Below are positions 12,426 through 28,211 of a stretch of 55,847 bases of DNA, one piece after another. A program made the position numbers and the translations under genes. Source of the stretch: a virus (lineage: Duplodnaviria > Caudoviricetes); IMG/VR virus record IMGVR_UViG_3300038301_000366, positions 1 to 55,847 of that record; one strand, 5' to 3'. Under the pieces are notes generated by a model. It was not told the origin of the DNA. It worked only from the letters and a program-made list of their open reading frames with translations, and did no database searches. The first letter of the stretch is position 1. Each line of letters begins with the position of its first letter.

Positions 12426-13409
12426 ATGATTAACTTCTTACAGTCCCCAAGTCAGTTCAACACTGTAAATATAAAGATGGCATCTCTTTCAGAAAGACAG
12501 CTAGTGATTATCGCCTGTTTTCAATATAGACAAGCGAAGACTCTACGCCTCGCCTCCAACTGGGTAACAAATCTAATCAGTTCGGGTGTCGCTAAAGTTA
12601 AAGGCATGGCGAAGTATGTTAAAAATGCGTTCTTAAAAATCTTAAAAGTGTTCTTTGTTCAAACCCCTGTCGTCAACCTATTCACTGAGTTTTTTCAATC
12701 CCTTGCTTATGATCGTCTACTGTCAAAGCTCTATTTCGCATGGAAACTAGGTGCTAAACATAGGGAGAGCGGTAAAGACCTTCTGAGTAGAGTGGGGTTC
12801 ATCAAGTATTATGGATCAAGGGATGGACTGTTCTTCTATGATGATTATATGAGTGGGTATGATGATACTTCTGACCTTAAAGATTTAAGAATCAAGGCGG
12901 TAAATATCGCTAAGGAAGATTTAGGTTTGAGGACAGTCACAGAGATTATAAAAGTGGCGTGGGAAACCCTAAACCCGTTCAAGTTTTTTGAGTCTTTCTT
13001 TACCTCATTAAAACTGATTGGTAAGAAAAAGGTTTTCTTACCTGGCTCAAGGACAGAAGCTAGTTTTATAGACATCTTTCTGTATCAGTTAAACTATGCA
13101 ATCCCTATGATGATCGCTATTTCATTACCTCAGATATTTACGATTAAAGTGTTAGGTGGTCTAGCACTAGGTTCACTTATGGGATACAACCCTAAAGATA
13201 TTATCAAAGGAAATAGCTCCTCCATCAAAAAACTCAAAAGGGGCATTTCTTCTCTTTTCTTTAAACAGCAAAAAAGATTTGATGTGGAAGAAATCTTTGA
13301 GAAGATTCCTGAAAAAGATGTTTTCTTCCATGACGCTCAAGGTGATCTTAAATCTGTTCAGAGTGCTTCAGAAGAAGAAATAGAGGAACTAGTTAAAAGT
13401 ATAAACTAG
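12426..13409 (+). CDS. Hypothetical membrane-associated protein
   Basis: Hydrophobic stretch YAIPMMIAISLPQIFTIKVLGGLALGSLMG; KMAS and RLAS sites near the N-terminus. Confidence 0.65.
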   Translation: MINFLQSPSQFNTVNIKMASLSERQLVIIACFQYRQAKTLRLASNWVTNLISSGVAKVKGMAKYVKNAFLKILKVFFVQTPVVNLFTEFFQSLAYDRLLSKLYFAWKLGAKHRESGKDLLSRVGFIKYYGSRDGLFFYDDYMSGYDDTSDLKDLRIKAVNIAKEDLGLRTVTEIIKVAWETLNPFKFFESFFTSLKLIGKKKVFLPGSRTEASFIDIFLYQLNYAIPMMIAISLPQIFTIKVLGGLALGSLMGYNPKDIIKGNSSSIKKLKRGISSLFFKQQKRFDVEEIFEKIPEKDVFFHDAQGDLKSVQSASEEEIEELVKSIN

Positions 13410-13475: not shown

Positions 13476-14042
13476 ATGTCCGACACAAGAAAGAAACTAA
13501 TAAGAATCGCTTACGATAACCCACATTTGCGATCTAAAATCCTACCGACTTTGAACAAAATCTCAGCTCAAAAAAAGAAGAAGACCAAGGTCAACTTCAT
13601 TGAAGCCATTCTTGAGAACCCAACTGACTTAACTTCTTGGTTGGAAAGACAAGACGATGCTCCCTCACTCAAAGGTTGGGATATTAAGAGTCATCACATG
13701 ACGATGGAATTTTTAAAGAAGGGCAAAGCAACAGACCTAGAACCTTATAAACAGTTCTTGGGTAACACCTATACCGTAGACATTGTAGGATATGCTTTTG
13801 ATGACAAGTGTGTTGCAGTCTTAATAGACACAAACTTGCCTGTCGATAACAAGTTCCCTCATATTACGGTAGCTGTGAATGGTGTGTCTCCTGTATACAG
13901 CAACGACCTCTTGAAAGAGAAGAGTGCTTCAGGTGAACTTATCCAAGCAAAAGGTAAGCTTAAAGTGAAGGTTGGGTACTTTGACTTTAAGACTCACCGT
14001 TATGATCTTCCTCATGAGTTTTTTGAAACTGACGAGGATTGA
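13476..14042 (+). CDS. 2H phosphoesterase (cyclic phosphodiesterase-like) with N-terminal tag
   Basis: Two HxT motifs (HHMTM, PHITVAV) followed by P.YSN, as in tRNA-ligase CPDase-like 2H domains; AAGGAG RBS. Confidence 0.8.
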   Translation: MSDTRKKLIRIAYDNPHLRSKILPTLNKISAQKKKKTKVNFIEAILENPTDLTSWLERQDDAPSLKGWDIKSHHMTMEFLKKGKATDLEPYKQFLGNTYTVDIVGYAFDDKCVAVLIDTNLPVDNKFPHITVAVNGVSPVYSNDLLKEKSASGELIQAKGKLKVKVGYFDFKTHRYDLPHEFFETDED

Positions 14043-17775: not shown

Positions 17776-18486
17776 ATGGCACAAGTTTATTTAATCGCTC
17801 GTAGAGCCGAAGTTCAGAATGGGTCAGTTATGGTTACTGACTTGTTCCCCAATGAAAGCCAAAGAAATACTGCAATCGACCCCGTTGGTGCAGGCCCGAT
17901 CTATGTAAGACAGATTGATCTAGGTGTGAAAGGAAAGTATAGAGCTATCCTAAGCACCACTGCAAACGTGATCTCGTTTGCTCGTGAATCAAGAGGTCTT
18001 GTTGCTTTCCTTATTAAGAATGTTGAAGCAGGCGGAGCTAACGGAGACGCTCTTACAGTTGCAGAAGCAACAATCGGAGCTAACCTTATCCTCGCAGAAG
18101 TTCGTGATGGAAATGCTCTCCCCGCAATTGCTATTAACGGCATTCTTACTAACATCAATGTTGGTGGTGCAGGTACTGACATTGAAGCAAACAGCACTGT
18201 TTCTGAGCTTATTCGTGTTCTTTCAGGAGAGACTTACATCGTCAAAGCAGGAAGTACGGTCGAAGACGCAAATGGAAACTTTGTCCCTGATGTTAATGCT
18301 TCAGCAGGCTTTCAGAATGATGTGAGACACCCTGTTGATGGGGACTCTTCTTGGGTTCTTTCAGCGCAAGGCGGTGTTCTTTCAGGTCTTAAATCTAATC
18401 AAAATGTAAAGGTAGGTTTTGCAGGTGTTTTGACCACAGACCCTATCGTAACCGTTTATAATGCAGACGGTTCATTGTTTGTTTAA
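17776..18486 (+). CDS. Putative virion structural protein, paralog 1 of 3
   Basis: VTDLFPNESQRN..IDP...GP.Y and C-terminal VYNADGSL; AAGGAG RBS. Confidence 0.7.
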   Translation: MAQVYLIARRAEVQNGSVMVTDLFPNESQRNTAIDPVGAGPIYVRQIDLGVKGKYRAILSTTANVISFARESRGLVAFLIKNVEAGGANGDALTVAEATIGANLILAEVRDGNALPAIAINGILTNINVGGAGTDIEANSTVSELIRVLSGETYIVKAGSTVEDANGNFVPDVNASAGFQNDVRHPVDGDSSWVLSAQGGVLSGLKSNQNVKVGFAGVLTTDPIVTVYNADGSLFV

Positions 18487-18508
18487 ACCATAAGAATGGA
18501 GATTTAAA

Positions 18509-19225
18509 ATGCCTTTTATTTGTATGCCCACAGTACCTAATAAAACAGATGAGGTTTTGGTTCAGATCACTGATCTATTTCCTCACAAAACTCAATCAAA
18601 CGCTACCCTAAATCCTAACTTTCAAGGACCTCGTTATCAACGAGCGATCTACAATGGGGCTTTAGTTAAGACTGTCGTTCTTGAAGCTGATTTCACAGTG
18701 AAAACTACGGTTTCGGGTCTTTCTGCATACTTGATTTCTACGATAGAAGTTACAAGCGATGCAAATGATATTGGTCTAACTCCTGCCCAAGCAGACGCTA
18801 TCGCAACTGCTATCATTGGTCAGGTCGGTTATGCTTCTTCTCTAACTGTCGCTGTTATCAATGCTCTTATCCAAGCTACTACAGTTGATGGGGGTGATGC
18901 TGATGGTATTGGGAAGGGTAACAGCACTGCGACTGTTTTAGAGATTCTTCAGATTCTTTCAGGCAGTCGTGTTTATACCTTACCTGCGACTACAGATCTA
19001 GGGAATGAGGGTGCAAACGATGTGTTTATTCCTTTAGACGCTAACATTCAAGCTTCTTTCTTTAGCACCCCTGTTGGAACTAAAGATGTTTCTAGTGCTG
19101 ACGCAAGCTTCTTCACCTCTGCTCGAAGCGGTCAAATCAATCTAGCTCAGTCTAAAAAGACTACTAGTGGTGTCGCTTCCCCTGTTCTCGTTGCTTACAA
19201 CGATGACGGTTCATTAATCCAATAA
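18509..19225 (+). CDS. Putative virion structural protein, paralog 2 of 3
   Basis: ITDLFPHKTQSN...QGPRY; C-terminal AYNDDGSL. Confidence 0.7.
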   Translation: MPFICMPTVPNKTDEVLVQITDLFPHKTQSNATLNPNFQGPRYQRAIYNGALVKTVVLEADFTVKTTVSGLSAYLISTIEVTSDANDIGLTPAQADAIATAIIGQVGYASSLTVAVINALIQATTVDGGDADGIGKGNSTATVLEILQILSGSRVYTLPATTDLGNEGANDVFIPLDANIQASFFSTPVGTKDVSSADASFFTSARSGQINLAQSKKTTSGVASPVLVAYNDDGSLIQ

Positions 19226-19240
19226 GTTAGGAGTTAGAAA

Positions 19241-19918
19241 ATGCCTAATCCAGTTATTTGCTTAAGGGATGAAACTATCCCTAATAATAGTTTTCAGATT
19301 ACTGATCTCTTTCCAAACCGTTCACAGAGAAACCCTGTGGTTGACCCTGCGGCACAAGGACCTCGTTATCTCAGACAACCTGAGAATAATATTCCTGTCG
19401 TAGCTAACAATGCTGTTTCTAAGGCTGTGAGTGGTCTTACTGCTTACCTGTTGACCACAATAGATGTTCAAGCAGGTGGGGCTAATCCTACTCCTGCCCA
19501 AGCTAGCGACATGGCGGGTACGTTATTAAAAAGAATGAGAAATGGGAATGAACTCACTCTCGCCAAAATAAATGATGCGATCCAAGCAGCGGGTAATGGT
19601 CAAGACTTTAATAATACAGGTATCGTTGGTACAGGTGATTCCACTGCTACTGTTCAGAATATCTTGAGCATTCTTGGTGGTGCGAACTTTACTGTTTCAG
19701 CAGGTACGAGTGTCGCTGATAGCTATCTTACAGAGGCACAACAGACTTCAGCTTTCAACAGCAATGTCTATCAAGCGATTGACCCAAGTGATTCAAGCTT
19801 TTATCTTTCTGTAGCGAGAGGTCAGCTTTCTGTGGCTAAATCATCTAGCACAGACGCTAAAGGTAATGTTCTTTACCCTCAGTGTGTGTTATATAAAGCA
19901 GACGGTACTTTACTTTAA
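19241..19918 (+). CDS. Putative virion structural protein, paralog 3 of 3
   Basis: ITDLFPNRSQRN..VDP..QGPRY; C-terminal LYKADGTL. Confidence 0.7.
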   Translation: MPNPVICLRDETIPNNSFQITDLFPNRSQRNPVVDPAAQGPRYLRQPENNIPVVANNAVSKAVSGLTAYLLTTIDVQAGGANPTPAQASDMAGTLLKRMRNGNELTLAKINDAIQAAGNGQDFNNTGIVGTGDSTATVQNILSILGGANFTVSAGTSVADSYLTEAQQTSAFNSNVYQAIDPSDSSFYLSVARGQLSVAKSSSTDAKGNVLYPQCVLYKADGTLL

Positions 19919-20445: not shown

Positions 20446-21285
20446 TCATATCTTAACCATCCCTCTTTTAGTAGCTTCCTCATCTGAGAAAGGGAGCTTC
20501 GTGTATTTATTATATTTAGCGTCAGTGAGGTCAGCTTCAGTGAGGTCAGCTTTTGTGAGGTTAGCGTCAGTGAGGTTAGCGGATCTGAGGTCAGCGAATC
20601 TGAGGTTAGCTAATGTGAGGTTGGCGAATCTGAGGTCAGCGAATCTGAGGTCAGCTTCAGTGAGGTTAGCTTCATAGAGGTCAGCGTATGTGAGGTCAGC
20701 TTTTATGAGGTTAGCTTTTATGAGGACAGCGAATCTGAGGTTAGCGGATCTGAGGTAAGCGTTTCTGAGGTGAGCGTCAGTGAGGTTGGCTAATCTGAGG
20801 TTAGCGTTTCTGAGGTTAGCTCCTGTGGGGGTAGCGAATCTGAGGTCAGCGTTTGAGAGGTCAGCGTTTGCGAGGTCAGCGTCAGTGAGGTTAGCGTCAG
20901 TGAGGTCAGCGTCAGTGAGGTCAGCGTCAGTGAGGTCAGCTTCAGTGAGGTCAGCGGATCTGAGGTTAGCTTCTCTGAGGTTAGCTTCTCTGAGGTCAGC
21001 TAATGTGAGGTTGGCGGATCTGAGTCTTGCTTCATAGAGGTTGGCTTCAGTGAGGTCAGCTTTTATGAGGTTAGCGTTTCTGAGGTTAGCTTTTATGAGG
21101 TTAGCGTTTCTGAGGTTAGCTTCAGAGAGGTCAGCGTCAGTGAGGTTGGTTTCGCTAAGATCAGTGTTTCTTAAATCCCACCCTGAGAAGTCCTGACCTG
21201 AGAGATCTTGACCTTCAAGACCCTTAATCATTTCTTCCTCTAGTTGGGCTACTCTTTCCATTAAGTTAGCTATCTTGTTTCTCAT
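20446..21285 (-). CDS. Pentapeptide-repeat protein with a coiled-coil leader
   Basis: About 45 A(D/N)Lxx pentads; N-terminus MRNKIANLMERVAQLEEE; AGGGAG RBS. Confidence 0.95.
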   Translation of the reverse strand: MRNKIANLMERVAQLEEEMIKGLEGQDLSGQDFSGWDLRNTDLSETNLTDADLSEANLRNANLIKANLRNANLIKADLTEANLYEARLRSANLTLADLREANLREANLRSADLTEADLTDADLTDADLTDANLTDADLANADLSNADLRFATPTGANLRNANLRLANLTDAHLRNAYLRSANLRFAVLIKANLIKADLTYADLYEANLTEADLRFADLRFANLTLANLRFADLRSANLTDANLTKADLTEADLTDAKYNKYTKLPFSDEEATKRGMVKI

Positions 21286-21372: not shown

Positions 21373-22116
21373 ATGAGATCTTTCATTGTATTTTTTATTA
21401 TTATTCTCACCCCCCTTCTTTCCTTTGGTCAGGTTAATATTGAAGATTTAAGAGGAGGGTCGAAAGAGGGGTTTTCAGGGACTATTGATGTAGGCTTCGA
21501 GAGGCTTACAGGGAACAATGACGTTTTAACTTATGCTCTAAAAAACAGAGTCGATTATGTCCAAAAGACACACCATATCTTTCTTCAACTCAGCTCTGAA
21601 AAGGGAGTTAATGAAGGGGTGGACTTTAAGGATGAAGCTTTTGCTCATTTGAGATGGACAACTATGTGGTGGGGTTTTGCAGGTACGGACTTCTTCATTC
21701 AAAGTCAATATGATGACTTTAAGGACTTAAAAATACGTCAGCTTGAGGGAGGGTATTTAAGACTTGTCTCTCCCTTATTTGATGGGGAAGTAGCTTTAGG
21801 TTTAGGTGCGATGTCTGAATATGAGCAACTGAAAGAAGGTGGGGGTGAAGGCTTTACTACTCGATTTACAAACTACGTTTCTTTAACTGAGAAATGGTTT
21901 GGAGGTAAACTCAAGATGTCTTTAACAGGTTATTATCAACCCAAAGTGGAGGATCACTCTGATTATCGTATGACTGCTGTAGGTCAAGTGGGCGTAAACA
22001 TTATCGGTGGTTTCTCTATACTTCCTAGTTTTAAGTATTCTTATGATTCCAAACCCCCTAAAGGTGTTGTCGTAGATGATCTTCAGTTAAAGCTTTATAT
22101 GAGATACCATTGGTAG
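21373..22116 (+). CDS. Outer-membrane beta-barrel protein, DUF481/YdiY-like
   Basis: Sec signal peptide, G....GN N-terminal strand, alternating amphipathic strands, YDSKPP.GV, terminal beta-signal LYMRYHW. Confidence 0.8.
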   Translation: MRSFIVFFIIILTPLLSFGQVNIEDLRGGSKEGFSGTIDVGFERLTGNNDVLTYALKNRVDYVQKTHHIFLQLSSEKGVNEGVDFKDEAFAHLRWTTMWWGFAGTDFFIQSQYDDFKDLKIRQLEGGYLRLVSPLFDGEVALGLGAMSEYEQLKEGGGEGFTTRFTNYVSLTEKWFGGKLKMSLTGYYQPKVEDHSDYRMTAVGQVGVNIIGGFSILPSFKYSYDSKPPKGVVVDDLQLKLYMRYHW

Positions 22117-22135: not shown

Positions 22136-23137
22136 ATGAATCGTCAAGCAAGTGTATTTAATGTCTTAATGGCACATGAACAGAACCGAAAGATCCGCAG
22201 AGCTATAGTCGCTTCTGGGAACGTCAGAGAAATGGATCAAATGAGGCGTGTTTTTTCGACTCTTTTGAACAGCTCTAAAGTAGCTTCAGTTGACGCTACT
22301 TTTTGGGAGGATGCTGATGACTACTTAAAAGATGAAAGAACTCAGAATGAAGTGAAAGAAGGTCTTGGTACTGCTTATCTGACTAGAATCATTAATGAAT
22401 ATAAAGAGAGATTCTCAAGGAAGTTCAGTGGTCCTTTCTCTTTGATTAGCGATGTTATGAAAGAAAGAGGTTTAGTGGGTAAGATTCATACTTTTGTGGA
22501 TAAAGCTCAAAAACCAAAAACACCTTATGAGGCAAAGATTGCAGAGAGCTTGAAGAAAGCAGGTGACTTTAGTTCGACTCTGAAAATGATGGGTCAGTTA
22601 ATTTCTGCAAGAACACCTCAAGAGGTTGGGGTATTGACGGGTTCTTCTTATGACGAGATGAGAGAGTACTTTAATGTAGGGGAAGACACTACTTCCGATT
22701 GGGCACTCACTAAGATGGAAGACCTTTCTCAATATATAGTAAGCACCCCTGACACTAAACTACTCGTTGTGAAAATTGGGATCACGATTCTTAAAATATC
22801 ATTGATCGCTTTACTTGCGAAAACCGCTTTAGCTACCGTTGGTTTAGGCATCCTGAAAGTCGTTGGGGTTGTCTTGCTTATTGTTTTAATTACCGACTCA
22901 ACAGCAACGGCTCAAATTATAAGAAAGATGGGTGTTTCTTTTGCAACTGTAGGGCTAGGTGTCATTAAAGATCTTGGTAAAACCTTTAAGTTTTTAGGTC
23001 GAACCACACGAGACTTCTATGAGAAAGGTAAGGGTTGGTTGAAGAAAATCTTCCGAAAGGCTGCACTTCGTAAGATTGATTGGCTTTTGGAGAACAACCA
23101 TAACTTTAGACGCTCTTACTTGCTTACCTCTATTTAA
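22136..23137 (+). CDS. Hypothetical membrane protein with (K/R)xA(S/A) sites
   Basis: Long hydrophobic hairpin LLVVKIGITILKISLIALLAKTALATVGLGILKVVGVVLLIVLI; MNRQAS, KVAS, RKAA. Confidence 0.65.
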   Translation: MNRQASVFNVLMAHEQNRKIRRAIVASGNVREMDQMRRVFSTLLNSSKVASVDATFWEDADDYLKDERTQNEVKEGLGTAYLTRIINEYKERFSRKFSGPFSLISDVMKERGLVGKIHTFVDKAQKPKTPYEAKIAESLKKAGDFSSTLKMMGQLISARTPQEVGVLTGSSYDEMREYFNVGEDTTSDWALTKMEDLSQYIVSTPDTKLLVVKIGITILKISLIALLAKTALATVGLGILKVVGVVLLIVLITDSTATAQIIRKMGVSFATVGLGVIKDLGKTFKFLGRTTRDFYEKGKGWLKKIFRKAALRKIDWLLENNHNFRRSYLLTSI

Positions 23138-23149
23138 GGGAGATTAGTT

Positions 23150-24697
23150 ATGTATAAGCGTTCTTGTGTTATTGCTCTCTCTGACATAAACGGAAAGAAG
23201 TTTATGTTTAAAAACAGAGATAGAAATTATACACCCCAACTAAAAATCTATCACACCATGAGAAATGGTGTTGAAATGGTGTACTTCAGAGATGAACACA
23301 CGGGTTGGGTTGAGGGTATAAATGAATATGGGATTGGAATCTCTAACTCTGCTCTTATGGTTATTTGGGATGAGAAAGAGGGTAAGGGTGGTAAAAAGAA
23401 GAAAGATAACATTACATTAGGTGCTTTAGGCTCTAGGGATGCAAGTAGAATCCTTAAGACTTTAGAGTGCCGTACTTTTGAAGACGCTTTAGAGACAGTA
23501 ATACACTATGATGGAGGTGTGCGTGGGCATACCTTTCTTTCCGATGGAGTTGAGGCTAGGTCAGTAGAGCATACAGCTAAACATAAAGCTTTTATTTCAG
23601 ACTTGAGTGCAGGTAAACATCATGTCCGATCTAATCATGGTGATAACTACCCCGATGCAGGATACACAATAGGTGAGAACAAAGAGAGTTCGCATACTAG
23701 GTTAAAGAAAGTGTTTGACACTCTTTCTGAAGTAGAATCACCTGAAGACTTGATTAAACAGCTTTATGCACAAAGGTTTGAAGACCCTACTTCTCCATTT
23801 AATGTCGTTCGCAGGACTGATAATATGTATACAAGCAGTCAGCTCATCTACGATTTTGAGGAGAAGAAAATCTCTCTCTATCTAGTTCCTGAAGACTGTG
23901 ATTATTTAGGGTATGTAAAAGACTTTAGTCATCAAGGTGTTTGTTCTTTTGATGTGTATAGATTAGGATACTTTAATAGTGATGGGTCTTTTAGAATTAA
24001 AAAGATTAAAGCAAACCCTGTTCGAGTAGCGAATCGTGTTAAAATGGCTTCGAGACAAAAAGCAGATAAGAAGGCTATAGCCCCTATCATTAAAAAAAAG
24101 ATTCTGAATATCTTTGATAAAGAGGAACGTAGCAGTGCTATGTATAAGCACTTTGAAGAACAGTTTGGTGTGGGTAACAAAGACCCTTTGATAAACAGAG
24201 ATGAGTCTCTCTTTATAGAGTGGGTTCAGAATCTTGAAGAAGATATCCCCCCTAAGTTTTGGAGATCATTATATTTAATTCCTGAAGATGGTTTATCTTG
24301 GGAAGCTGAAGATGTTTCTTTAGTTGGTGATTTAGAATGGGCGATAGACAAACGAGGGACTTATATCTGTGGTAAAGCACTTGTTTCGGGTTTGTGGGAG
24401 ATGTCGGGAGTGGGGAGAGAAGCGTATGTTGCCTACAGTGGAGAGTTCCCCATATATTCTCATCAGGAATGGTATTTGCGTGGGCTTGACCCTGAGATTG
24501 ATAAGCTTTGGGAAAAGTTCAAAAACTTTTTAAAATTGAAAACAGCACCTAATGGGGAATCTAAAGGTGGGGGTAAAATCTCTAGGGGTTGGGAAGGTAA
24601 ATATCACTTTAGTAAAGTGGTCAGCTTTTGCTTCCCTGTTTTTGAAGATAAACTGTTAGATATACAATATAAATTTCATATCGGAATTTTACCTTAA
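23150..24697 (+). CDS. Ntn-hydrolase (C45/C59/C69-like cysteine amidase/peptidase) fused to an unknown C-terminal domain
   Basis: Near-N-terminal Cys (MYKRS-C), FKNRDRNY, EGINEYGIGISN, RSNH. Confidence 0.75.
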   Translation: MYKRSCVIALSDINGKKFMFKNRDRNYTPQLKIYHTMRNGVEMVYFRDEHTGWVEGINEYGIGISNSALMVIWDEKEGKGGKKKKDNITLGALGSRDASRILKTLECRTFEDALETVIHYDGGVRGHTFLSDGVEARSVEHTAKHKAFISDLSAGKHHVRSNHGDNYPDAGYTIGENKESSHTRLKKVFDTLSEVESPEDLIKQLYAQRFEDPTSPFNVVRRTDNMYTSSQLIYDFEEKKISLYLVPEDCDYLGYVKDFSHQGVCSFDVYRLGYFNSDGSFRIKKIKANPVRVANRVKMASRQKADKKAIAPIIKKKILNIFDKEERSSAMYKHFEEQFGVGNKDPLINRDESLFIEWVQNLEEDIPPKFWRSLYLIPEDGLSWEAEDVSLVGDLEWAIDKRGTYICGKALVSGLWEMSGVGREAYVAYSGEFPIYSHQEWYLRGLDPEIDKLWEKFKNFLKLKTAPNGESKGGGKISRGWEGKYHFSKVVSFCFPVFEDKLLDIQYKFHIGILP

Positions 24698-24708: not shown

Positions 24709-25299
24709 ATGGACGTTTTTGACCGTATCGCAAGTGAGTTTGTCAAGGAAGCCCGTGTCCCTTCGACTAAGAATATTAAACGAGAGCCTGTTCCTTGTAA
24801 GAACCCTAATACTAAAGGTCCTTGCTACCGTTCGACAGGTAAGCCTTGGACAAAGAAAGAAGTAGAGACTGCTTATAAAGAGTGGAAGGGATCTAAAAAT
24901 TTAGGTAAGGGGGGTGATCTGTGGTCTAAATATGAGGGTGCTTCAACTGGTAATGGCAAACTCAACATAGAAAGAATTAATAAGAACCTTAATGAGATAG
25001 AGGGTGAACTAAACGAAAAGGCTTATACTAAGGGAGATAAAATCAAAAAGTTCTTTGGGAAGAAAAAGAAAGTCGAAAAAGTCTTAGGAATCAGTCGTTC
25101 TACTAAGGGGGGTGATGGAGACCCTAAAAAAAAGAAGCTACGAGAAGATAGAAAGAAGAGCCGACAACAAGGCAAAAACTTTGGAAAGAAGAAACCTAGC
25201 CGTAGAAAAGACCTTGCACAGCATAATAAGAAAGCTTCTTATCGTGAAGCAAGTCAAAGAGTAGCAAATAGATATTTAGCCGTAAGGGGTTGGGTATAA
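24709..25299 (+). CDS. Very basic (K/R/G-rich) protein, candidate internal DNA-associated head protein
   Basis: Composition; N-terminal DRIASEFVKEA and C-terminal KKAS..EASQRVANRYL tags. Confidence 0.6.
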   Translation: MDVFDRIASEFVKEARVPSTKNIKREPVPCKNPNTKGPCYRSTGKPWTKKEVETAYKEWKGSKNLGKGGDLWSKYEGASTGNGKLNIERINKNLNEIEGELNEKAYTKGDKIKKFFGKKKKVEKVLGISRSTKGGDGDPKKKKLREDRKKSRQQGKNFGKKKPSRRKDLAQHNKKASYREASQRVANRYLAVRGWV

Positions 25300-25812: not shown

Positions 25813-26709
25813 ATGTCTGTTTTATTTAAGCGGAATCAGATCCTTGGGAGAGGTGACTTAGATGTATTTCTTACTAACTCAAGTGGGAATGTTTCTAATG
25901 CCGCCGAGATCACTTATGCTCTTTATTACGTTGACCCAACCCCACCTGAAGCGGAAGTCTTAATCGGCAATGCTACGAGAGAGCCTGAGAATCCTTCAGT
26001 TGGTGAGTACTATGCAAGTGTGAGAATACCCCCTACAGCGAGTTATGGTACTTATAGGATCAGATGGTCTCTGAAAGAGTTAGTCAACAGCCCTGCTCAG
26101 ACAGTGGTTCAAGAGTTTGAGATTGTCTCGAATGATCTTTCTTTAGTGGTTACAATGAACCCTGCTGAAAGAGATATGGTAGACAAACTAAGACTTCTTT
26201 TAAGAGACCAAAATCCTGACAAATACTACCATTTTCGACCTCCTGAACATGAATCTAGCATTGGTGCTTACAATCGAGTGTTCGGACAAGTATGGGAAGA
26301 TGCGGAGTTTCTTGAGTACCTAGAAAGAAGTCTCGATTGGTGGAATATGCAACCACCTGAGACAGAAAATCTTAGAAACTTAACTCAGCTAGTTGCTCAG
26401 AAACCTGCGTGGAGAACACCGATCCTTCAAGGTGCGATACAGTTTGCAGCTATGGCGTTGCAAGCAAATTGGATCGTGGATGAGTTTGATTACAGTATCG
26501 GTGGCATTTCTCTTTCTTTAGATAGATCCTCTAAGTATGAAGGTCTTAAATCGAGTGCTGAACAGATGTGGAGTCAAAGCGTTGAAGCAAAAACTCGAAC
26601 CACAAAGTTTATGAGAGGTCTTTCCCAGCCGAAATATGGGATTGGGATAAGAAGTGCGTTCGGGCCGCACGTTGGGAAGGGGGTCCTTTCGCCCAGGAAT
26701 TTCATCTGA
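25813..26709 (+). CDS. Putative head-tail adaptor/neck protein with N-terminal Ig-like domain
   Basis: N-terminal beta domain (GEYYA...GTYRIRW); helical LRLLLRD...WEDAEFLEYLE and YSIGGISLSLD, as in adaptor proteins. Confidence 0.55.
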   Translation: MSVLFKRNQILGRGDLDVFLTNSSGNVSNAAEITYALYYVDPTPPEAEVLIGNATREPENPSVGEYYASVRIPPTASYGTYRIRWSLKELVNSPAQTVVQEFEIVSNDLSLVVTMNPAERDMVDKLRLLLRDQNPDKYYHFRPPEHESSIGAYNRVFGQVWEDAEFLEYLERSLDWWNMQPPETENLRNLTQLVAQKPAWRTPILQGAIQFAAMALQANWIVDEFDYSIGGISLSLDRSSKYEGLKSSAEQMWSQSVEAKTRTTKFMRGLSQPKYGIGIRSAFGPHVGKGVLSPRNFI

Positions 26710-26822
26710 TTTCTTAAAGGTTTACGAGCTTTGGTGGGTGTGGGGTAACCAAAAAAAGTGTTTGACAATCAACTAATGTTTGGTGTATGTATCTGAACTC
26801 AAATAAGAGAAAGGATATATAT

Positions 26823-28211
26823 ATGTCAACTCATTGTCCTGCGTGTAAGAAAGTATTAAAAAAAAAGGCGTTACCCTCTCACATCAAGGGTTGTCTCGAT
26901 TGGAATACAAAGATTGGAGTTCCCTCATCCGAGTTCAACTTTGATGAGTATTTTCAAAGGGGCTTGTATGAGTCGCAACTGATCGAGAATGTAGACTACT
27001 TGTCTTGTAAGATTTGTGGTTATCGTAAGAAGCGTATTGCCGACCATGTAAGAAAGGTGCATGGTTATGATGCGAAAGACTATCGTGCTAAGTATAACGC
27101 CCTAACCTCAATCCCCAAGATAAATGAGAAGCGTAAGGCTACGGTCAAAGATCGTTATGGAGTAGATAATGTATTCCAAGATACATCGGTAAAAGAAAAG
27201 TCCAAAGAGACAAATCTTAAGCGTTATGGGGTATCTCACATTGCCCATAGTGAAGAGATCAAAGAGAAGCGTAAAGCGACCAACCTAAAGCGTTATGGTG
27301 CAGAGAATGGGTTTGCTTCGGAGATCATCAAGGAACGCATTAAGGAGACAAATCTTAAGCGTTATGGGGTGGGGAATCCTAATCAGTGTGATGAGGTATT
27401 ACAGAAGCGTATCAAGACAAATCTTGAGCGTTATGGTGTTAAGCACTATGTTGAGACTGACGAGTTCCAAGAGAAGTTTAAGGAATCGAGCTTAGATCGT
27501 TACGGTGTTGATCACCCTATGAAGAGTGAGGTGCTACAACAAAGAAACAAGCAAGCGATGGTTGAGGCTCATGGTGTAGAATACCCTTCACAAGTTCCTT
27601 GGTTTGCGTCCAAGTCTAAGTCTACTTACCTTGAGAGATATGGTGTTGAACACCATACACAGACACAAGATTTCCTTGAGAAGAGAAGGGCAACTTGTCT
27701 TGAGCGTTATGGTGTGGATAATCCTTCTAAGGCACAAGAGGTCAAGGATCGTATTAAAGAGACTTGGTTGGAGAATTATGGAGTACCATTCCCACCTCAG
27801 AGTTTGCAGAGTACCTTTGATTTCCCTAACAAGTTGGAGAGGTACTTTGACTCGATTACGCCTGAGAGGTTGGTCTATGCAGGGGATCACTCTTATTGGC
27901 TAAGACACAAGGGTGCGAGCGGAGCGAGAAATCCCGACTTCATCTATTTGTCCGAGAGTCAGTATGAGAGTTATGTAGGGGGTGCTAACTTGAATGACTT
28001 GCGAGTGTATAAGGTGGTGGAGGTCTTTGGTGACTATTGGCATGGGGAATCAAAGACAGGAAAGAGCAATGAAGAACATGAGAAAGAGGTTATGGACTAC
28101 TATGCTCGTTGTGGGGTGTCTTGTCTTGTGATTTGGGAGGGTGATATACATAAGGACGAGGTTTCAGTTATAAGTAATGTGGTTGACTTCGTTGAAGGTA
28201 GTTTTATCTGA
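26823..28211 (+). mobile_element. Free-standing putative homing endonuclease: Zn-finger, (K/R)xTNLxRYGV repeats and a Vsr/EDxHD-like nuclease domain
   Basis: About 10 imperfect RYGV repeats; NPDFI...VVEVFGDYWHG...VIWE; ATG at 26823 behind AAGGA; visibly more AAG/GAG codons than the flanking genes. Confidence 0.72.

Follow-up and report, generated by a model that had tools for sequence, protein, structure and literature searches.

How does a hydrolase whose catalytic Cys has to be residue 1 become active when its gene encodes five residues ahead of that Cys? The question is raised by an open reading frame (ORF) in a 55,847-base stretch of DNA, which is the entire IMG/VR viral record IMGVR_UViG_3300038301_000366 (hereafter, the window). 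The ORF is located at 23150..24697 on the plus strand and is open over 515 amino acids (aa), with the N-terminus M-Y-K-R-S-C-V-I-A; there is no alternative start codon between its ATG and the Cys codon (23165..23167). An initial annotation of this DNA had described an N-terminal nucleophile (Ntn) hydrolase in which cleavage after K-R-S during head maturation would expose the Cys, and in which a second tag would allow two products to be released from one polyprotein. Comparison with homologous proteins and related phage genomes points, ahead of any rival reading but at about even odds, to a capsid-loaded zymogen, which would be cut in trans after S5 and A300, armed, and delivered with the DNA.

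The ORF encodes a predicted Cys-Ntn hydrolase

The sole family match of the protein was Pfam AAT (PF03417, peptidase C45), which scored 24.4 bits against a cut-off of 23.2 (E 2.6e-5) over residues 105-245. In the relatives P0009 and P0015, and in the copy from a complete related phage record (G004), this match spans most of the profile. PHROGs contained no family for the protein, and a profile search of the PDB sequences yielded no real match, the kinases returned at E ~0.8 being chance matches. An AlphaFold model based on 75 sequences had a mean predicted local distance difference test (pLDDT) score of 78.8, with most blocks of the N-terminal domain above 89 and mixed values in the C-terminal part. 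When the model was compared using Foldseek, the best match was isopenicillin-N acyltransferase (IAT; E 8.9e-9), and further matches were CV2077, bile salt hydrolases (BSH), NAAA, penicillin V acylases (PVA), acid ceramidase and TANGO2; 67 PDB chains matched at E <=0.001, and those among the matches listed were all Ntn hydrolases or their relatives. Structural alignment with VIA-align gave Z scores of 19.8 for CV2077 (3gvz; root mean square deviation 2.8, 216 residues aligned), 18.7 for the NAAA beta chain, 18.2 for acid ceramidase, 18.0 for IAT, and 15-17 for BSH and PVA.

The structural alignments started with model residue 6 opposite residue 126 of the human NAAA beta chain, 143 of acid ceramidase, 103 of mature IAT, 2 of BSH and 1 of PVA, and these positions are the mutated or self-cleaved Cys named in the PDB entry titles. 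Because the alignments to solved Ntn enzymes begin at residue 6 opposite the nucleophile Cys, Cys6 is the predicted Ntn nucleophile, and residues 1-5, which lie opposite residues 98-102 of the IAT precursor, must therefore be removed for activity. The superposition thus bears out the initial view that the Cys must become residue 1, and the protein is, as modelled, an Ntn amide hydrolase that is predicted to be inactive while residues 1-5 remain. In the 75-sequence alignment, C6, K21, R23, D24, G56, N58 and N162 were invariant, and N22, H163 and G164 were conserved in at least 90% of the sequences. The N-terminus and the KNRD, GINExG and NH motifs on which the annotation had been founded are accordingly present and invariant or nearly so (contexts: FKNRDRN, residues 20-26; EGINEYGIG, 55-63; RSNHGD, 160-165). 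R23, D24 and N162 may be the counterparts of PVA and BSH catalytic residues, namely the Arg and Asp after the Cys and the oxyanion Asn. Judging from the fold relatives, the substrate would be an amide of non-peptide or short-peptide type, and the ChaC/GGACT fusions that are frequent among the relatives, where the junction carries no tag, hint loosely at gamma-glutamyl compounds.

Residues preceding the Cys fall into three classes

A word-indexed search found 128 relatives, the best 120 of which were listed, and a pattern scan of viral contigs found 481, from which 80 loci were retained; a single-protein query of the viral contigs found no relative, and an alignment query was needed to reach the 481. 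From these, together with a copy from Chryseobacterium phage MA9V-1, we obtained 192 domains whose Cys could be identified, of which 165 were distinct. The 165-domain count leaves out P0048, P0049, P0085, L061 and L065, which lack the N-terminus, and L025, L030, L031 and L044, K-T/I-RDR variants missed by the pattern; read by eye, the latter end in RTS/C, REA/C, REA/C and KQS/C, respectively (here and below, a slash within a motif marks the bond to be cut), and all belong to the Lys class defined next.

The Cys was unvarying in all 165 distinct domains, and the residues preceding it fell into three classes with no remainder: [KR]-x-[ASG]/C in 82 (Lys class), [ILVM]-x-E/C in 76 (Glu class) and M/C in 7. 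With P1 denoting the residue immediately before the bond, P3 in the Lys class was K in 73 and R in 9 domains, and P1 was A in 52, S in 23 and G in 7, while 10 residue types occurred at P2 and 15 at P4. In the Glu class, P3 was I (44), L (21), V (10) or M (1), P1 was E in all 76, and P2 varied among 11 residue types. Constraint at P3 and P1 combined with drift at their neighbours is what would be expected from recognition by a protease. Endings of the same classes precede the internal Cys of polyproteins of 961-3133 aa, for example FHREA/C at residue 856 of a 3133-aa frame, LSKQA/C, RLKQA/C and QVSE/C.

A consistent (K/R)x(A/S) before the Cys, as originally predicted, was thus found in half of the family (82 of 165), but not in the other half, which has [ILVM]-x-E or M; the broader expectation that the pre-Cys residues are not arbitrary and that the Cys is conserved held throughout. 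The Glu-class half carries the motif type of Glu-specific head proteases, which fits the original idea rather than refuting it. The tripeptide [KR]-x-[ASG] fills 472 of 17,149 positions (2.75%) in 54 window ORFs, so a lone K-R-S before Cys6 is not significant by itself; it gains its weight from conservation across the homologues and from the longer tag pattern, described below, that exceeds the shuffled expectation.

In P0007, P0012, P0014, P0021, P0041, P0042, P0051 and locus L004, a domain of ~150 aa (K-W-H-x-L-I-N-M-S-Q-K-A-L) is fused N-terminally to the hydrolase. The M-x-K-x-[AS] start is retained right before the Cys in 5 of the 7 proteins (not in P0041 and P0051), as if a gene fusion had left the five-residue leader intact.

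Tags in the window and in a complete relative

Since its completeness was estimated at 18%, the window is a piece of a phage of roughly 300 kb. The majority of its ORFs have no family match, and those that match are phage-like (a 1614-aa tail-sheath-like protein, thymidine kinase, primase and deoxynucleoside kinase). Because 54 of the 283 ORFs of G004 (312 kb) match the window, this record is a fair proxy for the phage of the window. Pfam detected no head, portal or terminase family in the 283 G004 ORFs; PHROGs, applied to 47 of them (ORFs without a Pfam match, plus the ClpP gene), detected all three.

The tag pattern R-[VI]-A-x-x-x-[KR]-x-[AS] occurs in 5 of 94 window ORFs versus a mean of 0.095 after shuffling (maximum, 2), and in 21 of 505 G004 ORFs versus a shuffled mean of 0.445 (maximum, 3); in G004, 20 of these lie within the first 60 residues. 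Both K-R-S before C6 and K-M-A at residues 298-300 fit the endings of four leaders of the window (Table 1) and of the 20 N-terminal leaders of G004. The tag that had been placed between the hydrolase and an unrelated C-terminal domain was confirmed (ANPVRVANRVKMAS), and its linker (residues 292-299) has a pLDDT below 50 in the AlphaFold model, between the confident N-terminal domain and the C-terminal part. The linker tag is kept in P0002, P0003, P0005 and P0006. More generally, the hydrolase domain of close relatives is followed by NP-x-RVA-x-x-x-K-x-[AS] if another domain comes next, and by an RVASRYL-like tail if none does. A related form, R-V-A-x-R-[YFW]-[LA], is present at protein ends or domain joints in Lys-class polyproteins, and was found in none of the four Glu-class polyproteins examined. 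C-terminal tags usually have [KR]-x-[AS] upstream (KKA/S, KTA/S, REA/S); a tag would therefore be removed whichever end it occupies. In G004, the head-module protease, an acidic scaffold-like protein and a 942-aa neighbour carry RVA tags together with KKA sites.

The four leader genes of the window (28274..30487 and 35859..36560) share a near-identical M-R-R-x-A-S-E-I-I-x-x-L-E-x-R-[IV]-A-x-L-E-[KR]-x-[AS], and ~10 paralogues of them stand in a row in G004, directly upstream of the tail sheath gene. In the 370-aa member (29375..30487), the middle is a long hydrophobic stretch, and the C-terminal tail reads K-T-A-S-Q-Y-P-A. We had considered this member as the major head protein and dropped the idea in view of its hydrophobic middle, its mere 13 homologues, and the different, 292-aa major head protein of G004, which lacks such a leader. 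The family may comprise membrane-active ejection proteins.

Tag-like stretches were also observed in other proteins of the window. The 188-aa product of 13476..14042 contains a fungal-tRNA-ligase-type cyclic phosphodiesterase (2H) domain (Pfam E 4.3e-9) and an N-terminal tag-like KLIRIAYDNPHLRSKILPTLNKISA, and may be another loaded enzyme. A 327-aa protein (12426..13409) that starts with MINFLQSPSQFNTVNIKMAS shares K-M-A-S with the hydrolase linker and has two tandem homologues in G004. On the minus strand, a pentapeptide-repeat protein (20446..21285) begins with the leader-tag-like NLMERVAQLEEE, proteins of this kind numbering more than a dozen in G004, and a 247-aa protein (39005..39748) has an internal tag with sites on either side, KKA/SAKKVASQYMEKHA/F.

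Fusion and fission at the internal tag

The C-terminal part is an orphan unrelated to the hydrolase. An exhaustive phmmer search of 1.84 billion representatives with residues 299-515 returned its own 50% cluster as the only strong match, plus two weak partial ones; no Pfam or PHROG family and no usable ESM Atlas match was found, and BLASTP revealed no real similarity to the C-terminal part of P0009. Modelled alone, this part had a pLDDT of 44.7.

Another relative links the internal tag to the next gene of the window. Residues 292-489 of the hydrolase P0008 align to the whole product of that gene (24709..25299) with 38% identity (E 4e-19), and the alignment begins at the tag, RVAS--LKMARIPS in P0008 versus RIASEFVKEARVPS in the window. 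What serves as a linker tag in one phage thus forms the N-terminal leader of an independent gene product in another, as would be expected of a processing site from which two products are set free, and this fusion supports the release that had been suggested for the internal tag. Cleavage at K-R-S/C had also been expected to fix where the tag grammar is cut; the internal site stood, but the position that the grammar indicates is after A300 (K-M-A/S), not after S301.

In other relatives, the hydrolase is joined to TopoIB (7 chains), InPase, PolyA polymerase, PAP2, PS decarboxylase, Zeta toxin, GNAT, ART-PolyVal, Ham1 or ChaC/GGACT domains, a set typical of virion-delivered polyvalent proteins. 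Polyvalent chains combine at least two unrelated domains; the window protein consists of the hydrolase and the orphan domain, and its relatives reach 3133 aa.

Pre-Cys classes and phage proteases

We surveyed the proteases of 24 longer records (9 of the Glu and Met classes and 15 of the Lys class) and of the window, the L022 record not being included. Peptidase_S77, the T4 gp21 family, was present in 6 of the 9 Glu- and Met-class records, among them all 4 with a completeness of 96% or more, and in 0 of 15 Lys-class records; MA9V-1 (FLNE/C) also has an S77 match. Conversely, a head maturation protease of the phrog_18299 type was present in 10 of the 15 Lys-class records, among them all 6 with a completeness of 79% or more, and in 0 of 9 of the others. 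The phrog_18299-type gene of G004 is found just upstream of an acidic repeat protein and of the major head gene (292 aa), at a distance of 2.4 kb from the latter. Cultured phages have relatives of it that bear the annotation head or capsid maturation protease. A ClpP family gene was found in 5 of 15 Lys-class records (G001-G004 and G007) and in 0 of 9 Glu- and Met-class records. ClpP was rejected as the sole protease of the Lys class, because G005 and G021 (79% and 90% complete) lack it.

According to PMC5694885, the head proteases of T4, phiKZ, 201phi2-1 and SPN3US cleave after Glu, and the T4 leaders, of 10-20 residues, are capsid targeting sequences. In our tree, a single branch with a Shimodaira-Hasegawa-like support of 98 separates the Lys class from the Glu class, and the labels change 5 times overall. 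Because the split is a single branch, its co-variation with the type of protease amounts to about one evolutionary event.

How the nucleophile might be exposed

The zymogen reading assumes that the precursor, consisting of the five-residue leader, the hydrolase (C6-A300), the linker tag and the orphan domain, is inactive as made. A phage protease acting in trans, which would recognise [KR]-x-[AS] in an exposed tag or leader, would cut after K3-R-S5 and after K298-M-A300; the first cut would unmask Cys6 and the second would free the C-terminal domain. The acting protease would most likely be the capsid-maturation protease encoded beside the major head gene in the related complete genomes. By analogy with the T4 internal proteins and Alt, the R-V-A tag would address the precursor to the procapsid, and the enzyme, once loaded, would be armed as the head matures and would enter the next host together with the DNA. 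Somewhat more tentatively, and slightly on the doubtful side, we extend this to the family, which is widespread: phage Cys-Ntn amidases may break the self-activation rule, two unrelated capsid proteases (T4-type S77 and the phrog_18299 type) each having their own motif directly before the nucleophile, so that maturation would both load and arm an injected enzyme, and in the Lys-class jumbo phages R-V-A may be a portable capsid address (N-terminal, C-terminal or interdomain) that is always cut away.

Several observations weigh against processing in the capsid. No head protease, head or portal gene was found in the window, an 18%-complete fragment, and Lys-class genomes also offer a second protease candidate, the ClpP family (5 of 15), so that either may be the one that acts. 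The match between class and protease could result from shared ancestry. The M/C forms arose at least four times independently, twice inside S77-bearing genomes; the leader is therefore dispensable, and the M/C enzymes would presumably be active in the producing cell. The motif is short, with 17 copies of [KR]-x-[ASG] in the hydrolase protein itself; the N-terminal leader of the hydrolase has no R-V-A tag; and in P0004 the linker is altered, with M-S-A replacing K-M-A. A small P1 residue (A, S or G) is compatible with self-cleavage, which PMC9140057 states to be a hallmark of the Ntn superfamily.

Self-activation, which we judge unlikely though well within reach, would have the enzyme remove its own leader by an intramolecular N-to-S acyl shift; the pre-Cys residues would then reflect the geometry of the reaction or shared ancestry, and the linker might be cut or uncut. 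According to the titles of PDB entries, precursor and self-activated forms have been solved for IAT, NAAA, acid ceramidase and PVA. The single-branch split is compatible with such a mechanism, and self-cleavage would likewise free the Cys from the upstream domains of polyproteins. It accounts less well for sister clades that have the same invariant active-site columns and yet differ at P1 (Ala, Ser or Gly versus Glu) and at P3 (Lys or Arg versus Ile, Leu or Val); self-cleavage is not known to require a P3 residue. In addition, each pre-Cys pattern is the tag or leader ending of other proteins in the same phage lineage, and the M/C forms show that folding needs no leader.

Cleavage in trans that is unrelated to the capsid seems to us improbable. 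Here the tags would function in the cytoplasm, in the processing of polyproteins or in turnover by, for instance, the ClpP family, and the enzyme would act in the producing cell, as the M/C relatives would. The ClpP family genes do lie away from the head module, and so does the hydrolase gene in the window and in G004; however, the Lys-class genomes G005 and G021 have the head-module protease without ClpP, the ClpP family gene (that of G004) itself matches PHROG head-maturation-protease families, tags are carried by head-module proteins, and the protease matching the Glu class is S77, a T4 head protease family. That the hydrolase is itself the maturation protease cutting the tags, as the initial annotation had also entertained, is not supported and strikes us as very improbable: some Ntn enzymes are peptidases (the proteasome, HslV and the C69 dipeptidase, the last at Z 16.5), but the enzymes closest to it in structure are amidases acting on lipids, bile salts and beta-lactams, the complete relatives encode dedicated head proteases, and the enzyme, often one fused module among effectors, would first have to cut itself free.

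Comparison with known systems

If the zymogen reading is correct, the protein combines two known kinds of system, Ntn zymogens and head cargo processed by a prohead protease. Among the former, IAT (C45; PDB 2x1c, precursor; 2x1d and 2x1e, mature) is nearest, as the enzyme of the sole Pfam match and the best Foldseek match (Z 18.0). It is self-activating and retains its alpha chain; identity is 15%, and unlike IAT the phage family has a pro-part of 0-855 residues with a lineage-specific P3 and P1 motif. NAAA and acid ceramidase (C89), BSH and PVA (C59) and CV2077 share the alpha-beta-beta-alpha core (Z 15-19.8) and alignments starting from the nucleophile Cys, but at 12-17% identity, and they self-activate or use Met removal; the substrates of these fold relatives give no direct clue to that of the phage enzyme. 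TANGO2 and NRDE proteins also have an Ntn-like fold, an N-terminal Cys and an NRD-type motif, but their Foldseek matches (9bwa and 8sv7, E 1.4e-4 to 2.8e-4) are weaker than those of IAT or NAAA; giant-virus NRDE/TANGO2 models were among the BFVD matches.

Among head cargo, T4 IPI-III and Alt and the ejection proteins of phiKZ and SPN3US resemble the present protein in having short leaders that the prohead protease removes at a three-residue motif ending in P1 (PMC5694885; PMC5512222 for Alt). Cleavage of these proteins is not known to create a catalytic residue; here, by contrast, the motif is [KR]-x-[AS], the candidate protease is not S77, and tags are also C-terminal and interdomain. The relatives that embed the hydrolase in chains of 961-3133 aa with TopoIB, InPase, ART-PolyVal, Zeta toxin, GNAT, PAP2 and PolyA polymerase resemble polyvalent proteins, which the 2017 paper of Iyer et al. 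(PMC5512222) predicts to be packaged and processed; for their processing its main text proposes built-in metallopeptidases rather than a head protease, and the term Ntn is absent from that main text. Our literature searches found no paper joining an Ntn hydrolase and a prohead protease and, as judged from the listings, none on such an enzyme among those on capsid targeting sequences, ejection proteins and Ntn.

The window adds a two-part precursor with an internal tag, a fusion and fission link to the next gene, a candidate protease family other than S77, and the caveat that the match with the Lys and Glu classes is one event. Ntn hydrolases are textbook self-activating enzymes, and a family armed by a separate viral protease would, if real, be a new way of controlling them. 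Because the Cys must be residue 1, the position of the cut is fixed to the residue, a rare opportunity to read from sequence alone the cleavage rule and the cargo tags of jumbo phages that are uncultured and match few known families. In each genome, roughly 20 tagged proteins are candidates for delivery into the host, and the short tag peptides are candidates for loading foreign proteins into capsids. With 481 relatives in the viral contig collection, the enzyme is common.

Table 1. Features of the hydrolase locus, of other tagged genes in the window, and of two protease genes in G004 (positions refer to the window unless G004 is given)
Feature	Position	Strand	Basis or remark
Stop codon of upstream gene	23135..23137		Read from sequence
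Shine-Dalgarno-like GGGAG	23138..23142	+	Read from sequence; 7 nucleotides 5' of ATG
Five-residue leader M1-Y-K3-R-S5	23150..23164	+	Proposed cut with K3 at P3 and S5 at P1
Cys6 codon, predicted N-terminal nucleophile	23165..23167	+	Invariance, structural alignment
Cys-Ntn hydrolase domain C6-A300, proposed mature enzyme of 295 aa	23165..24049	+	Pfam, AlphaFold, Foldseek, VIA-align
K21-N-R-D24 motif	23210..23221	+	K21, R23, D24 invariant; N22 at least 90%
G56-I-N-E-Y-G61 motif	23315..23332	+	G56, N58 invariant; G61 at least 90%
N162-H163 motif	23633..23638	+	N162 invariant; H163 at least 90%
Tag ANPVRVANRVKMAS, residues 288-301	24011..24052	+	Sequence
Tag core R292-V-A-N-R-V-K298-M-A300, proposed cut after A300	24023..24049	+	Shared tag pattern
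C-terminal part S301-P515	24050..24694	+	Orphan, no family
Second candidate site K307-K-A309	24068..24076	+	Weaker, motif alone
Stop codon of hydrolase ORF	24695..24697	+	
Next gene, basic 196-aa protein	24709..25299	+	N-terminal tag RIASEFVKEA, C-terminal tag KKASYREASQRVANRYL
Three genes with leaders ending R-[IV]-A-x-L-E-[KR]-x-[AS]	28274..30487	+	RIASLEKQS, RIAHLEREA, RVAELEKEA
Fourth gene with the same type of leader	35859..36560	+	RVARLERTA
G004 ClpP family gene, away from head module	G004 97122..97763	-	Locus pair L089 and L093
G004 phrog_18299-type gene, beside very acidic repeat protein and 292-aa major head gene	G004 176745..178130	+	Locus pair L089 and L093

Other genes of the window

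A gene at 21373..22116 encodes a DUF481 protein (outer-membrane beta-barrel family) with a signal-peptide-like N-terminus. It is conserved in G004, and its presence in a phage suggests a Gram-negative host. In the region 25813..28211, an intact ORF (25813..26709) precedes a homing-endonuclease gene (DUF7487, and annotated as such in PHROGs); the G004 counterpart of this region is split over two frames, one of which has an intein splicing domain. Three tandem paralogues of 236, 238 and 225 aa (17776..19918) have in common I-T-D-L-F-P-N-x-S-Q-R-N near the N-terminus, and the triplet is kept in G004.

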